Source of the DNA: an uncultured delta proteobacterium
GTDB lineage: Bacteria; Myxococcota_A; Polyangia; Polyangiales; Polyangiaceae
Direction of reading: 5' to 3'
Length of the DNA: 64,000 bases
Assembly (NCBI GenBank): GCA_963841435.1
Contig: CAWJCS010000003.1
Location: forward strand, 1,344,001 to 1,408,000
Shown: positions 58,003 through 63,375 of the stretch, piece after piece
How the letters are laid out: each line of letters begins with the position of its first letter
How positions within the stretch are numbered: position 1 is the first letter of the stretch
Notes under the pieces: generated by a model
Databases searched by the model: none
What the model was told of the DNA's origin: nothing
What the model saw: only the letters and a program-made list of their open reading frames with translations
Position numbers and translations under genes: made by a program

Positions 58003-58075
58003 GGGTCATTAGCTCAATTGGTAGAGCAGCGGACTCTTAATCCGTTGGCTTCTGGTTCGAGTCCAGAATGGCCCA
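58003..58075 (+). tRNA. tRNA-Lys (CTT)
   Basis: GGGTCAT/ATGGCCC acceptor, GCGGA-CT-CTT-AA-TCCGT arm, GGTTCGAGTCC T-arm. Confidence 0.96.
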
Positions 58076-58096
58076 CTAGTAATCGTTGAACAATCC

Positions 58097-58278: not shown

Positions 58279-59027
58279 TCAGGCATCGCTCGATCCCGAG
58301 GCCGGCCCAGCCGCTCCGTTCGTCGCCTTCCCCGCTGATGCCACGGCGCCGGTACGCTTCGGGTCTTCAGCCAGCTCGGGGATCGCGTCGCAAAGGGGAA
58401 CCCAGTCGCCGAGGCTCTGCTCTTGGTGGCCCCGAGCCCAGCGCTTGTAGCGGTTGATCATCTGGCTCGACATGTGGCCCGTGCGGTCGGCGACCCACGA
58501 CTCGGTCTTGTTGTTAGCGAGGGCCACGGTCACGAACGAAGCACGAAGATCGTGGGCTCGGAGGTGCAGCCGATGCTCGTCGCTCTGGTAGAGCTGCGCA
58601 CGCTGGACACCGGCAAGCTTGAGGAAGCTGCGCAGCCGCTCGGCAAGTAGGTACGGGTCGAGCAGAGAGCCGTCAGCCAGGGCGAACACGTGGGCGCTCG
58701 GACTCTTGGAGCGCATGTAGCGGTCTCGGTACCTAGCCAACGCTTTGAGGGTGCCGGGCTGGAGCGGCCAGTCCTTCGGACGACCCGTCTTGGTCTCGTC
58801 CACGTGACCCCAGCCGTGATCGAAGTCCACCTCACGAAGTTGCAGATCCCGAACCTCCCCAACTCGGGGACCTTCTCGGGCGAGGAAGCCGTAGAACAGA
58901 CGCTCGACAAGCGGCACGTCCCGGCAGGCCATCAGCTTCAGATCCTCGTCCGGGTACACGTAGGCTTTCGCCTTCTCGGCGCCCGGCTTTGGCAGGAAGC
59001 CAAGCGGCAGCGGATGCGCGGCAAGAA
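58279..59027 (-). pseudogene. Tyrosine integrase, C-terminal catalytic part (IS-interrupted)
   Basis: REGPRVGE (Arg), TKT, HDLR, TGH..SQMINRY. Confidence 0.9.
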
Positions 59028-59249
59028 TGTCGGCGAGCGCCGGAAAGCGCGGAAATCTGAGCGAGGCCGCCTGACGGCGTAGTTGGCCCCGGCCGCGCGA
59101 GCGGCGGAGGATCTCGGCCCGCCCCAAATAGGAAGGGCCCGGAGACTTCACCTCTCCGAGCCCGGGTCGCCGCGAGTGGACGCGTTCGACGCGATGGTTG
59201 TCGCACGAGTCCGCGAGGGTGGCCGAGTTCTCGGCGGCCGCGCTCGCGA

Positions 59250-59912
59250 GTGGACGATTTCCGGCAGATCCAGTGCTTGGTCGATGACTGCCGGCGGCTG
59301 TTCCACCTGTGCCGGGGTTGCGATCGCGGACACGTCTACTGCCCGGACGGACGGCACGACGCCAAGCGCGCGAGCACGCGCCGGGACTCGAAGCGGCGGC
59401 ACTGGCGGAGCCGTGGAGGACGGCGGACTACAGCGGCACGGCTGCGACGCTTCCGAGCTCGTCGGCGAAAAATAGAAACGGACAGGGGTCGCCGAGAAGT
59501 TGGCCTGTCCCCGATCGTGGTCGTCGCCGAGCGCTCCGCCGTCGCGGTGACGGTCGAGTCGCCCGGCAAGGAAACGACCGATGGAATCGATTTGGATGGG
59601 AATTGCGCCGGGTTCGGCGACGACCCGGGTCTTGGCGATGGCGGGCCCCGGCGAGACGCTGCTCAAAGGCATGCTGCGGGGGACCCCGTCGCATGCGCGG
59701 GCGCTGCCGACGCTGCTCGAGGCGGTGGCGCTCTGGCAGGGAGCCCCGGTCCGCGCTGTGCTTTGTGCGGACGCGAGGGCCGCTTCGTCCGACTCGCCCC
59801 TCTCGCACGTTGCGTGGGACGAGGGCGGCGCGCTCTACAACGTCACCTTCGTTCCCGGGCTCGACCGCCCCCGGCGGCGCAGCGGCGTTCGTGGGGTCGG
59901 AGACTTCCGTGA
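59250..59912 (+). CDS. IS accessory ORF1: Cys-rich putative zinc finger plus Arg-rich helix
   Basis: C..C....C..CDRG..YC, Arg-rich run, distal CALCGR. Confidence 0.6.
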   Translation: MDDFRQIQCLVDDCRRLFHLCRGCDRGHVYCPDGRHDAKRASTRRDSKRRHWRSRGGRRTTAARLRRFRARRRKIETDRGRREVGLSPIVVVAERSAVAVTVESPGKETTDGIDLDGNCAGFGDDPGLGDGGPRRDAAQRHAAGDPVACAGAADAARGGGALAGSPGPRCALCGREGRFVRLAPLARCVGRGRRALQRHLRSRARPPPAAQRRSWGRRLP

Positions 59913-59949
59913 TCTCGAGCGGCTGCTGGTCTGGGAGGTGGCGCGATGA
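59581..59949 (+). CDS. IS accessory ORF2, uncharacterised 122-aa protein
   Basis: AAGGA RBS; ATGA coupling to istA; globular composition. Confidence 0.7.
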
Positions 59950-61457
59950 TCTCCGAGGAGCTCCGTTCGCGCATCCGGCGGCTGTTCTTCGCCGAGCACT
60001 GGACGATCGGCACCATCGCCACCGAGCTCGGCTTGCACCGGGACACGGTTGCGCTGGCCGTGGAAACGTCTCGCTTCGCGACGGCGCGGTTCCAGAGCCG
60101 CGCGATGATCCTCGACCCGTATCGCGACTTCGTGCGGGCGACGCTCGAGCAGTACCCGCGGCTCCGCTCGACGCGGCTGTTCGAGATGATTCGCGCTCGC
60201 GGCTACGAGGGCAGCGTTTTCCCGCTCCGCCGCTACGTGCGTCACATCCGCCCGGCGCCGGCGCACGAGGCGTTTTTCCGCCTGAGCACGCTGCCCGGTG
60301 AGGAGGCCCAGGTCAACTGGGGGTCGTTCGGAAAGCTCCGCGTCGGTAACGCTGAGAGGCCGCTCTCGTGCTTCGTGCTCGTGCTTTCGTGGTCTCGGGC
60401 GACCTTCGCGCGCTTCACGCTCGACCAGACCCTCGAGAGCTTTCTGCGCTGCCACGTGGCGGCGTTCCAGCGCCTCGGAGGTGTACCGAGGACCATCCTC
60501 TACGACAACCTAAAAAGCGTCGTCCTCGAGCGGGAGGGCGACCTCATCCGCTTCCACAACCGCATCCTCGAGCTCGCCGGTCACTGCCACTTCGCCCCCA
60601 AGCCCGTCGCCGTCGCGCGGGGCAACGAAAAAGGCCGTGTCGAAAGACGGATCAGGGACCTCAGAGAATCCTTCTTTGCCGCACGCTCCTTCAGCTCGCT
60701 CGCCGATCTCAACCGGCAGCTCGAAAGTTGGCTCGAGCACGTCGCTCACCAGCGCGGCGTTCCCGGCGAGCTCGAGAAGCGCGTCTCAGAGGCGCTCGAC
60801 GAGGAGCGCCCCCGACTCTTGCCGCTGCCCGAGCATCCGTTCCAAACCGACGCGATTCGCGCCATTTCTTCTGGGAAAACCCCGTATCTCCGCTTCGACA
60901 AGAATGACTATTCGATCCCTCACACCCTGATCAGAAAGCCGCTGACGCTCGTTGCCTCCGAGACCACCGTCCGTGTGCTCGACGGCAACGCCGAGGTTGC
61001 TCGTCACCGCCGCTCTTGGGGAGCTCGCCAGCAAGTCGAGGACGAGACCCATCTCGCGGCTCTCGCCGCCGCCAAGCACAAGGCACGCGAGCACCGAGGC
61101 AGAAATCGGCTCTTCGTCGCTTGCTCTGCCGCTCAGCCGTTCCTCGCCGAGGTTGCTCTCCACGGCGGGCACCTCGGCGGCACGACCAGCCGCTTGCTCC
61201 GCTTGCTCGATCAGTACGGCGCCGCCGAGCTCAACGCCGCCCTCGCCGACGCGCACCAGCGCGGCGCCTTCGCCGCTCAGTCCGTCGCCCACGTCCTCGA
61301 TCAGCGCCGTCGCGCCCGCGGCGCTCCGGTCCCGCTCGAAGTCACGCTCCCGAGCGACCCGCGCATCCAGAGCCTCGTCGTCACACCCCACGCCCTCGAC
61401 CGCTACGACCGGCTCTCCCAATCTTCCGATCCGGCAGAAAAACAGGTGAAGCCGTGA
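59946..61457 (+). CDS. istA: IS21 transposase IstA
   Basis: N-terminal HTH, EAQVNWG, LYDNLK, KGRVER, NDYSIP. Confidence 0.95.
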
Positions 61458-62245
61458 CCGAGCGCGATCTCCGGGCCCTGCTCCGCGCTCTCGGTCTCAC
61501 CGCCACCGCCGACGCGCTCGACGACCTCATCGCCCTCGCCACCAAGAAGCGCTTCGGCCCACTCGAGCTCTTCCAGCACGTCGCGGGCCTCGAGGAAAAA
61601 GAGCGCGCTCGGCGCGGACTCGAGCGCCGCATCCGGCGCAGCCGCCTGGAGCGTTTCAAACCCATGGCCGACTTCGACTGGAACTGGCCCTCGAAAATCG
61701 ATCGCCCCCTCGTCGAGTCCGTCCTCCGCCTCGACTTCCTCGAAGAGCCCAGAAACGTCGTGCTCGTCGCGCCACAGGGCCTGGGGAAAACCATGATCGC
61801 CCAAAATGTCGCCCACAACGCCGCGCTCGGTGGTCACGGCGTCCTCTTCATCTCCGCCGCTCAGCTCCTGCTCGACCTCGGCGCTCAGGAGTCCGCCCGC
61901 GCCCTCGAGCGCAGGCTCAAGCACTACGCCAAAATCGGCCTCCTCGTGCTCGACGAGATCGGCTTCCTCGCCTTCGACAACCGCAACGCCGACCTCCTGT
62001 TCCAGGTCATCAGCCGCCGCTACGAGAAGAAAAGCACCGTCCTCACCACCAATCTCGCCTTCAGCGGCTGGCCCACCATCTTCCCCAACGCCACCTGCGC
62101 CACCGCGCTCATCGACCGCGTCGTCCACCACGCCGACGTGATCGCCATCGAAGGCGAGAGCTATCGCGCTCGCGACGCCGAGGCTCAGGCCAAGGAACGT
62201 CGCTCGCGTAGAAAGGAGAAACCCGAGCCTGAGCCCGCTGCCTGA
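61454..62245 (+). CDS. istB: IS21 helper ATPase IstB
   Basis: [38 protein letters not shown] overlaps the istA stop. Confidence 0.95.
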
Positions 62246-62267
62246 CCAATCAGCTCCGCTCCGGAGG

Positions 62268-62302
62268 ACAGCCCGAGCGCGACTGCGTCGCGCCCGGGCT
62301 GT
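62268..62302 (+). terminator. GC-rich hairpin after istB
   Basis: ACAGCCCGAGCGCGAC-TGC-GTCGCGCCCGGGCTGT; 16-bp stem with one mismatch, weak U tract. Confidence 0.5.
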
Positions 62303-62335
62303 TCAGATTTCGACGGAAACCGGGGCTCGGCAACA

Positions 62336-62879
62336 CAAGAAGATGAAGCGGGTGAACCGCAAGTCGCAGCACGTACCGAATGACCTGGCCAACCTGGCGC
62401 GCGGTTGCGTCGCTCAGCTCGGCTCGTGGCGGCAGCGCCGCCATCACGCTTTCCGCAAGCTCCAGGCCCTTCGGAGCAACGAATTCCTCGATCGGCACCT
62501 GCCCGATGTGATCGTACACGTAGATCCTCAACCGCGCCGCATCGTCCGAGGCCGACTTCTTCGACCTCACGTAGCGGGGGTAGAGTTGGGCAAGCTTGCC
62601 ACTGGTCCACAGCTCCCCGAGTTCCTTGAACGTCATGCCGGGCCAGATGGTGCCGTTGCTCGGGCGACCGGGAACCCTTGAAGCGCGTGCCGCATCCGCG
62701 CGGGCCTTGACGAACGTCTTGCAGTAGCGCCTGGCGACGTCATCTTCCTGAACAGTCTTGGGCACCCGGTGCATCTTCCACAGCCCGACCTTCACGCGGT
62801 ACTTCAGCACCCACTGCGCGTGCTGGTCGGAATACCAGGCGAACCAGTACTCCCCTTGGATCCGACGTCGCTCAGCCAC
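62336..62879 (-). pseudogene. Tyrosine integrase, N-terminal part (start GTG 62879 or ATG 62927)
   Basis: TFKELGELWTSG..., joins in frame to the catalytic part once the IS is removed (LAVHPLHLL|AAHPLP). Confidence 0.85.
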
Positions 62880-63375
62880 CGCGACGGTCCGCTTTCTGGG
62901 CGTTGCCCAAAGCGAGGAGGTTGACATCGTCGAGATCCTCGGCGTCTTGCCTGAGCAACCACTCGTCAGCGTCGGGAACAACGATCCGGAGGAGCTTCCC
63001 GTACCCCCGCGTTGGAAGGCCGGCCCCGATCAGCTTGTCGAGCGTGCGGACGCTGTAGCCGACCCGATCAGCGTACTCGCCCTTCCGCATGAGCAGGGGA
63101 GCACGGTCGGCTGGCAGACCGCCGCCCCCGATGGCGTCACGCACCTGAGCGACCAGGTTCGGGTTCTCGGCTGCGAGCCTGAGGACCGCCTGAGCCAGCT
63201 CGACCAAGAGGCCGTCAGCGAACCCGCGTGGAGCAGTCGGTGGGGGCGGCAGGCGCGCTGGGCGTAGCGGGAGGACCTCGGCGGCAGGAGGTGGCACCCT
63301 CTTGGTACGCCTGGCATGAGCTGCACGTGAACCCGCTACGGACGCTTGCCCGTTCGGCTTTTCGGACCTCGACAC
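62872..63375 (-). CDS. Excisionase-like winged HTH protein
   Basis: MRKGEYADRVGYSVRTLDKLI..GLP.....LRI; directly upstream of the integrase. Confidence 0.6.
   Translation of the reverse strand: MSRSEKPNGQASVAGSRAAHARRTKRVPPPAAEVLPLRPARLPPPPTAPRGFADGLLVELAQAVLRLAAENPNLVAQVRDAIGGGGLPADRAPLLMRKGEYADRVGYSVRTLDKLIGAGLPTRGYGKLLRIVVPDADEWLLRQDAEDLDDVNLLALGNAQKADRRGG

Follow-up and report, generated by a model that had tools for sequence, protein, structure and literature searches.

An IS21-family element of the Polyangiaceae with a conserved leader and two overlapping reading frames ahead of istA-istB

Introduction

IS21-family elements serve as a structural model of how an AAA+ ATPase controls a transposase. 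In their canonical form these insertion sequences (IS) carry two genes only, istA and istB, and they duplicate 4-8 bp of target DNA upon insertion. Here we describe a variant organisation in an uncultured member of the Polyangiaceae. The element lies at positions 59028-62335 of a 64,000-nucleotide stretch (the window) of contig CAWJCS010000003.1, assembly GCA_963841435.1, positions 1,344,001 to 1,408,000 of the forward strand. Inside its ends, a leader and two further conserved open reading frames (ORFs), ORF1 and ORF2, precede istA-istB; we refer to these three parts together as the cassette.

Small proteins encoded ahead of a transposase are known from other insertion sequences. InsA of IS1 and OrfA of IS3/IS911 are small, basic, nucleic-acid-binding proteins that are encoded at the 5' end and overlap, or are coupled to, the transposase frame. 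The transposase itself arises in those elements through a -1 frameshift fusion. The present analysis follows an earlier note on the same DNA, which had proposed a four-gene IS21 variant with a zinc-finger ORF and an RNase H-like ORF as possible regulatory or target-selection subunits.

Results

An intact IS21-family element with a 5' cassette

The IS21-family element in the window is complete: its 3,308 bp end in inverted repeats of the TG..CA type, and it is flanked by duplicated target DNA of 6 bp. Its left terminal inverted repeat (59028..59060, plus strand) begins with TGT, spans 33 nt and is 73% complementary to the right one (62303..62335, plus strand), which ends in ACA. The left-repeat block also opens the IS21-type loci in our alignment A4. 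The hexamer CAAGAA occurs immediately outside each end, at 59022..59027 and 62336..62341. These repeats and duplications agree with the precise ends drawn in the earlier note. The element is single-copy in its 7.78-Mb genome.

Both canonical genes are present on the plus strand. istA (59946-61457) encodes a DDE transposase of 503 aa, and its ATG overlaps the ORF2 stop in the tetramer ATGA; istB (61454-62245) encodes an AAA+ helper ATPase of 263 aa, and its GTG overlaps the istA stop as GTGA at 61454-61457. IstA scored 255.6 bits against NF033546 (cut-off 160) and 77.1 bits against Mu-transpos_C_2 (PF22483; cut-off 27). The match of its DDE core to rve (PF00665) reached an E of 6.9e-07 but, at 29.9 bits, lay under that family's own cut-off of 32.6. 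IstB scored 201.6 bits against PF01695 and 220.2 bits against NF038214 (cut-off 200). The locus thus resembles the IS21 family in carrying an istA with a DDE core and an overlapping downstream istB, both over Pfam and NCBIfam cut-offs, in its TG..CA ends, and in target duplications of 5-6 bp across the copies described here. It differs in having four genes rather than two, a conserved leader, and one extra gene nested out of frame in the other.

The leader occupies 222 nt between the left end and ORF1 (59028-59249, plus strand). ORF1 (59250..59912, plus strand) starts with GTG and encodes 220 aa; ORF2 (59581..59949, plus strand) has its own ATG and encodes 122 aa. A leader of about 220 nt and two extra ORFs were thus correctly recognised at first reading, and both ORFs proved to be conserved. 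The description of ORF1 as a zinc-finger ORF lying ahead of ORF2 stands as far as its cysteine cluster goes. It fails on length: with 220 codons, ORF1 is twice as long as first read and extends into ORF2.

Both reading frames are selected over a long overlap

ORF2 sits within the 3' half of ORF1, so that the last ~110 codons of ORF1 overlap it out of frame. Over this shared stretch, purifying selection acts in both frames, and the DNA is dual coding. The clearest signature is found at a CxxC knuckle near the C terminus of ORF1, whose codons (C170 TGT, C173 TGC; 59757..59768, plus strand) fall inside ORF2 codons 59-63. A codon alignment of 17 loci has T at the third position of ORF2 columns 60 and 63 in every sequence, compared with a background frequency of third-position T of 0.108. 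In the ORF1 frame these two T residues make the two cysteines in every one of the 17 loci, and the ORF2 residue at column 63 itself varies (Cys in 11, Ser in 2, Ala in 2, and two others). As a control, no column of IstA (0/501) or IstB (0/255; 0/756 together) holds a third-position T at a level of at least 90%. T-ending codons that are otherwise rare in ORF2 are therefore forced at two sites by the knuckle encoded in the overlapping frame.

The extent of the overlap is also conserved. We filtered for intact loci with all four ORFs, an ORF2 of 115-128 codons and an ORF1 of at least 190 codons, which kept 23 of 29 four-ORF loci; in all 23, ORF1 stays open for 299-353 nt beyond the start of ORF2. 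In the six loci left out (L006, L007, L020, L037, L038 and L047), ORF1 or ORF2 is frameshifted or cut short; long-read assemblies are the source of several of them. When ORF2 was recoded synonymously with each locus's own codon usage, the ORF1 frame stayed open that far in 1.6-57% of trials, depending on the locus. The arrangement recurs in a relative of only 52% G+C (L063), where a 192-aa ORF1 with PPRCLVCGERGRFF near its end overlaps by 233 nt a 109-aa ORF2-like frame whose stop in turn overlaps istA. Relatives without ORF2 have the knuckle as well, as CxxCGRRGRW at the end of an ORF1 of ~148 aa. Along the window copy, third-position G+C favours the ORF1 frame at 59215-59340 and 59485-59575 and the ORF2 frame at 59575-59845; in the ORF2 frame it amounts to 0.8-0.93, with a third/first-second position difference ratio of 1.55.

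The two frames appear to be read from separate starts. A GGA-rich, Shine-Dalgarno-like stretch precedes ORF2, and a GAGGAG-like version of it is conserved 6-9 nt ahead of the ORF2 ATG. We considered an ORF1-ORF2 frameshift fusion and set it aside, as ORF2 has this conserved stretch and its own ATG and ORF1 is open throughout; slippery sites were not searched for.

A separate observation concerns the start of ORF1, which is GTG in nearly all loci, including position 59250 of the window, with no recognisable Shine-Dalgarno sequence upstream, unlike the strong one of ORF2. Such a start hints at weak or unconventional translation of ORF1.

ORF1 may form a two-zinc module

Seven cysteines of ORF1 are invariant, five near the N terminus and two in the C-terminal CxxC, and a further position near residue 35 is Cys or His; the spacing is C-x4-C-x6-C-x2-C-x6-C-x3-(C/H) ... 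C-x2-C. Among 28 sequences, the invariant residues are M1, C9, C14, C21, C24, Y30, C31, C170 and C173. An alignment of 14 sequences drawn from across all element types retains C9, C14, C21, Y30, C31, C170 and C173, so the CxxC is kept in 28/28 and 14/14 diverse sequences.

A structural model built on the 28-sequence alignment has a mean predicted local distance difference test score (pLDDT) of 66.7, unevenly spread along the chain. Residues 1-80 (pLDDT 82-97) are predicted to form two strands followed by an Arg-rich hairpin of two helices (37-53 and 55-83). Residues 94-164 mostly score below 50, and the CxxC block at residues 171-180 stands out at 89 amid this low-confidence linker. The cysteine cluster and Arg-rich helix pointed out in the earlier note are recognisable here as invariant N-terminal cysteines and the helical hairpin that follows them.

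Comparison with known proteins gave little. Foldseek returned nothing for the ORF1 model at E <= 0.001, and VIA-align matched solely the helical hairpin (31-85) at an uninformative Z of ~5. PDB sequence profiles paired residues 4-35 with the PHD finger of BAZ2A (E 0.056) and the knuckle with zinc-type uS14 (E 0.67), neither being significant. Neither ORF1 nor ORF2 belongs to a family in Pfam (E <= 1), NCBIfam, PHROGs or PADLOC, where weak rows far from significance or cut-off were all that appeared; with no Pfam family at E <= 1, ORF1 has no TniQ domain.

Taken together, the cysteine pattern and the model suggest that ORF1 is a two-zinc, cross-brace-like module that would draw its last ligand pair from the distant C-terminal knuckle. 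Cross-brace zinc fingers bind two zinc ions through eight Cys/His ligands in interleaved pairs. The spacing in ORF1 recalls those of the PHD and MYND types, and the BAZ2A match, though below significance, is to a PHD finger. ORF1 differs from them in that its last ligand pair lies ~135 residues away, past a disordered linker, and in having no structural match.

ORF2 is predicted to adopt a RuvC-like superfold

A search for ORF2 relatives found 531 proteins at E <= 0.01; among the matches listed, nearly all are 121-127 aa long, on contigs typically of 1-4 kb. ORF2 keeps 45 of its 122 positions unchanged in an alignment of 20 close sequences and 11 in one of 26 diverse sequences. AlphaFold2, given the 26-sequence alignment, produced a best model with a mean pLDDT of 75.9 and a predicted template modelling score of 0.71; of the five models, only this one and a second (74.9) were confident, and the other three scored 44-48. 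The predicted order of elements is beta1-beta2-beta3-alpha1-beta4-alpha2-beta5-alpha3.

When this model was compared with 48,161 chains by VIA-align, the RuvC domain of Cas12i1 came out on top (Z 9.2, 121 residues aligned), followed by a canarypox resolvase (8.9, 112 aligned), D-allose kinase (8.7), the RuvC domain of Cas9 (8.2), RuvX and YqgF (both 8.0) and, further down, ISCro4 (6.9). A best Z of 7-8 is common even for models without a clear match, and ASKHA kinases score equally; we therefore claim an RNase H-like/RuvC superfold and no family. Foldseek likewise returned uS11, ASKHA kinases, RNase H and IS621 at E values of 4e-4 to 3e-3 and TM scores of 0.42-0.52. The model thus predicts for ORF2 an RNase H-like superfold of the RuvC/YqgF type, in line with the beta-beta-beta-alpha-beta pattern read earlier from the sequence.

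ORF2 is like RuvC, RuvX (YqgF), the poxvirus resolvases and the Cas12 and Cas9 RuvC domains in that its predicted topology aligns over nearly all of its 122 residues. It differs in lacking a match to any sequence family, in scoring equally with ASKHA kinases, and in its active site. The position of the first catalytic Asp, expected where beta1 ends, is not conserved: the window has Ala there (residue 9), just as the earlier note had read it, and relatives have A, D, H, R, T, K or E.

A specific relationship to IS110, whose fold type that note had also named, was not seen in profile comparison. In language-model (Atlas) features, DEDD_Tnp_IS110 clusters are the named families nearest to ORF2 (19 of 30 matches, score 0.90, 154 shared features), which we regard only as a lead. 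The fold class is shared with the N-terminal DEDD domain of IS110 transposases (PF01548), which work with a bridge RNA, as the Foldseek hit to IS621 (E ~2-3e-3) and the ISCro4 alignment illustrate, and a non-coding leader lies upstream in both. However, hhalign of the ORF2 alignment (A2) against seven IS110 DEDD domains from related genomes gave a probability of 0.08%, no match to PF01548 was found at E <= 1, and ORF2 has neither the C-terminal, serine-containing Tnp domain nor a conserved DEDD tetrad. PDB sequence profiles returned insignificant rows only. A complex prediction of ORF1 with ORF2 scored 0.00; its controls were not run, and it counts neither way.

The leader is conserved and contains a covarying hairpin

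Conservation of the leader extends over ~170 nt at the nucleotide level (alignments A4, A5 and A6). Its blocks, at 59077..59249 on the plus strand, comprise GCGTAGTTGGCC, a hairpin, GTCGCCGCGAGTGGACGCGTTCGAC, GTTGTCGCACGAG and GGCCGA.TTC. They are common to IS21-type loci and to two loci with tyrosine recombinases (L003 and L010, described below), with which the IS21 terminal repeat is not shared.

The hairpin (59135..59163) is supported by covariation. In an alignment of 40 sequences, 83.8% of the cells are paired, and both sides have changed in 8 of its 10 pairs; none of 500 shuffles reached the observed pairing, and slid controls were 27-63% paired. The run ahead of it on the plus strand is A-rich; seen from the minus strand (59163..59135), a T-rich run comes after the hairpin, as in an intrinsic terminator. 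The earlier note had registered the leader, but neither its conservation nor this hairpin. Three-gene elements, introduced below, show an equivalent hairpin and then a T-run on the plus strand, as read from the printed sequence. Rfam matched nothing over 58900-62450 at E <= 1, and neither the right end nor the rest of the window repeats the leader motifs above chance.

One octamer of the leader, AGTTGGCC (59080-59087), does recur inside ORF1, at 59498-59505, in conserved GRREVG codons. Near this copy, one ORF1 codon column (GGT) keeps a third-position T in at least 90% of loci.

The cassette occurs in several IS21 lineages and beside tyrosine recombinases

Scanning one genome per species for ORF2 gave 60 loci, most of them in Polyangiaceae or other Myxococcota, with some contigs binned as Gemmatimonadaceae, Burkholderiales, Opitutaceae, Nocardioides or Gaiellaceae. 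In 54 of the 60, ORF1 is the immediate upstream neighbour of ORF2; one locus has no room for it, and five are partial ORF2 matches without ORF1. An IstA match follows ORF2 in 46, and in 33 of these the IstA alignment begins at the last base of the ORF2 match, at the ATGA overlap. The arrangement is therefore not due to chance: the coupling of ORF2 to istA through ATGA, as described in the earlier note, recurs across these loci, and so does the linkage of the homologues to istAB, which that note had singled out for checking. The same ATGA overlap couples ORF2 to the next gene before istA and before tyrosine recombinases alike. Within the order, 40 of 201 genomes have an ORF2 match (32 of 152 high-quality ones); within the phylum, 53 of 401 have an ORF1 match. 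An exhaustive profile search for ORF1 found 3,622 representative clusters (50% identity) at E <= 0.001, including 2,213 at E <= 1e-10, many of them 190-230 aa long and aligned end to end. The metagenome locus scan used a single protein, P0270, as its query.

We tabulated what lies downstream of ORF1 in 29 loci drawn from the 401 phylum genomes. ORF2 and IstA matches both follow in 10, an ORF2 match only in 1, and IstA at +685 to +749 nt with ORF2 undetected in 2; in 6, IstA begins at +440 to +500 nt, the three-gene type, and in 3 a ParB-like gene and then IstA follow. Neither probe matched in 2, there was no room in 3, and 2 had no ORF1 match at the BLAST level. A tyrosine recombinase follows in none of the 29. 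These contexts indicate that ORF1 is mainly an accessory gene of IS21 lineages that occasionally stands before tyrosine recombinases.

Several variant organisations were found. The whole cassette occurs in several IS21 lineages, distant ones having an IstA identity of 26-36%. A three-gene IS21 clade lacks ORF2 and has an ORF1 of ~148 aa with both zinc motifs, the end of which abuts or overlaps istA (L064-L074, L076, L077, L114, L118, L125, L126, L129 and L131). In a quick IstA tree (SH-aLRT support only, midpoint-rooted), this clade, with a support of 100, is nested among four-gene lineages. Its position suggests, without settling the matter, that ORF2 was lost in the three-gene clade. A five-gene variant places a ParB-like gene between ORF1/ORF2 and a distant istA (L039, L040, L115, L120 and L122); in L039 (5369-6499) and L040, the product of this gene, 376 aa long, matches HTH_ParB weakly (E 0.0026), and the IstA that follows has 26% identity.

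At two loci, L003 (1407-4556) and L010 (227-3370), the leader blocks, ORF1 and ORF2 are followed through ATGA by two tyrosine recombinases (Phage_integrase with SAM-like domains), and istAB is absent. The DNA to the left of their leader blocks is unlike the IS21 terminal repeat and contains a common TAACCGGCCAA motif. A third locus, L102 (3-2806), has a short ORF1 without ORF2 directly ahead of a similar pair. The recombinases downstream of ORF1 at the three loci are of ~350 and ~460 aa. That ORF1 can stand without ORF2, or before tyrosine recombinases, had escaped the earlier note.

One genome (G185, loci L079-L087) carries eight 3,212-bp copies at 99.6% identity and one rearranged copy, which points to a recently active four-gene element. 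Its copies are flanked by 5- or 6-bp target duplications, with no sequence common to the flanks by eye. The eight copies and the window copy together give nine insertion sites in which no target preference could be seen by eye, and the target-selection role suggested in the earlier note gains no support from them.

Among plasmids, a query with the short type of ORF1 found one decayed copy, under two accessions, and the ORF1 of the window found no match. This decayed copy lies on plasmid pSa001 of Sandaracinus amylolyticus (NZ_CP070226.1, 31280-32340; L088) and has an istA truncated after ~40 codons. In RefSeq its ORF2 is a hypothetical protein and its ORF1 is unannotated, even though the cysteine cluster and knuckle are clearly readable. 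This, with the absence of a curated family for either ORF, fits the earlier view of an under-described subclass. Word searches of the IS21 literature found no description of the extra ORFs, and neither did a term search inside PMC12486865; ISfinder lay outside these searches.

The element interrupts an integrase gene

The element splits a minus-strand tyrosine integrase gene, the halves of which form its two flanks (58279-59027 and 62336-62981). The first contains the catalytic domain (Phage_integrase, PF00589, E 2.2e-15; 58282-59025, minus strand) and the second a match to the central domain (62337-62981, minus strand). Once the element and one copy of the repeat are removed, the integrase frame, read by eye, closes across the junction. 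A tRNA-Lys(CTT) gene (58003-58076) adjoins the interrupted integrase, and these neighbours indicate that the element landed in the integrase of an integrative element; it looks as though that integrase was knocked out by the insertion. The next ORF after the integrase (62872-63375, minus strand) is helix-turn-helix-like and has no Pfam match.

Discussion

We tentatively favour, at somewhat less than even confidence, a reading in which the cassette is a nucleic-acid-binding regulatory or accessory module that is chained by translation to the recombinase downstream. ORF1, judged from its sequence and model, would be a zinc-binding, nucleic-acid-binding protein whose distant CxxC probably folds back on the N-terminal cysteine cluster and completes a second zinc site of the cross-brace type. 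Its most likely target would be the element's own conserved leader, which travels with the two genes into loci of other recombinases, either as DNA or as 5' untranslated RNA. Bound there, ORF1 may set the output of the ORF1/ORF2-istA-istB translation chain. It would then be an element-encoded regulator, with a logic comparable to that of the small DNA-binding proteins that IS1 and IS3 encode upstream. ORF2 may be an adaptor, RuvC-like in fold but catalytically dead, through which nucleic acid or a partner protein is bound.

Some parallels with InsA and OrfA can be drawn. ORF1 is, by prediction, alike in being small, basic and nucleic-acid-binding, and in being encoded 5' of the transposase frame and overlapping or coupled to it. 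It differs in that those proteins are of the helix-turn-helix type and ORF1 is predicted to be a Cys-rich zinc module. Moreover, their transposase is the product of a -1 frameshift fusion; in the present element ORF2 starts on its own, and the two frames are apparently read separately.

Several observations weigh against this regulatory reading. No solved fold matched ORF1, and the cross-brace idea draws on cysteine spacing and pLDDT. Two acidic residues of ORF2, E47 and D111, never vary in the alignment, and a third, D64, is common, so a non-canonical catalytic site is possible. The whole leader folds no more stably than its shuffles (z -1.13), the hairpin at 59135-59163 is the only leader structure supported, and in a simple promoter scan of the leader no promoter-like site passed. 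Finally, identity at synonymous sites is raised only mildly in ORF2 (0.55, and 0.60 in mid-ORF2, compared with 0.47 and 0.52 in istA and istB), which suggests that the constraint from the overlap is concentrated at the knuckle and not spread across ~110 codons.

A possible but doubtful alternative is that ORF1 and ORF2 are co-factors of transposition that choose or prepare the target, with ORF1 acting through IstB much as TniQ/TnsD act with the AAA+ regulators of Tn7-like elements. The cassette does put a zinc-finger-type protein beside an AAA+ helper, and ORF1 is tied almost only to IS21-type transposases: 21 of the 29 phylum loci have IstA downstream and none a tyrosine recombinase, with 3 having no downstream room and 5 showing neither probe. 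However, the nine insertion sites share no target sequence by eye and have ordinary 5-6 bp duplications, ORF1 yields no TniQ match in Pfam at E <= 1, and it also precedes tyrosine-recombinase pairs that have no AAA+ partner (L003, L010 and L102).

It is less probable, and in our view unlikely, that the cassette is a selfish passenger unrelated to the chemistry of transposition, such as an anti-defence, addiction or host-manipulation module that helps any carrier. Its movement between unrelated recombinase types and IS21 lineages as distant as 26-36% IstA identity would suit a passenger, as would the absence of matches to known families. Against this, passenger genes seldom hold a fixed 5' position with start/stop overlap, and the cassette is always 5', in the orientation of the recombinase and joined to its gene by such an overlap; PADLOC has no match for it.

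Only a slim chance attaches to the idea that leader RNA joins ORF1 and ORF2 in a ribonucleoprotein by which recombination is guided or licensed, by analogy with the bridge RNA of IS110 or the omega RNA of TnpB/IscB. Its attractions are the predicted RuvC-type fold of ORF2 and the closeness of its language-model features to DEDD_Tnp_IS110, a conserved leader with a covarying hairpin, an Arg-rich, zinc-finger-like ORF1, and the association of an accessory module with more than one recombinase type, as for TnpB. The variable residue at the first catalytic Asp position, the hhalign result against IS110 DEDD domains, the dispensability of ORF2 in whole clades and the absence of a sequence shared by insertion sites all speak against it; no guide-like variable segment or target matching turned up, though neither was searched for. 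It is tempting to extend this idea to a portable ribonucleoprotein that would license or direct whichever recombinase lies downstream, IS21 or tyrosine, with ORF2 born or reshaped by overprinting on the ORF1 frame, and we give this equally speculative version a similarly slim chance.

That the long ORF1 is a chance open frame of which only the first ~110 codons make a functional protein is very unlikely: DNA of 70% G+C often has open alternative frames, this frame stays open in 2-57% of per-locus shuffle trials, and the product of the overlap is rich in R, A, G and P with mostly low pLDDT, but two synonymous sites hold the T that creates both cysteines in 17/17 loci, the CxxC persists in 28/28 and 14/14 diverse sequences, the overlap is found at 52% G+C, and an identical knuckle closes ORF1 in elements without ORF2.

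The analysis establishes the anatomy, conservation, dual coding, predicted folds and start/stop coupling of the cassette, whereas its role as a regulatory or accessory module is inferred. A large natural branch of IS21 bears one or two extra conserved proteins and a leader that are undescribed in the literature we searched and in curated libraries. The ORF1/ORF2 pair offers a clean bacterial case of a long out-of-frame overlap (~110 codons) with a direct selective signature, one that annotation pipelines miss, as the unannotated ORF1 of the RefSeq plasmid illustrates. If the cassette does regulate or direct both DDE and tyrosine recombinases, it would represent a new, reusable control module of mobile DNA.

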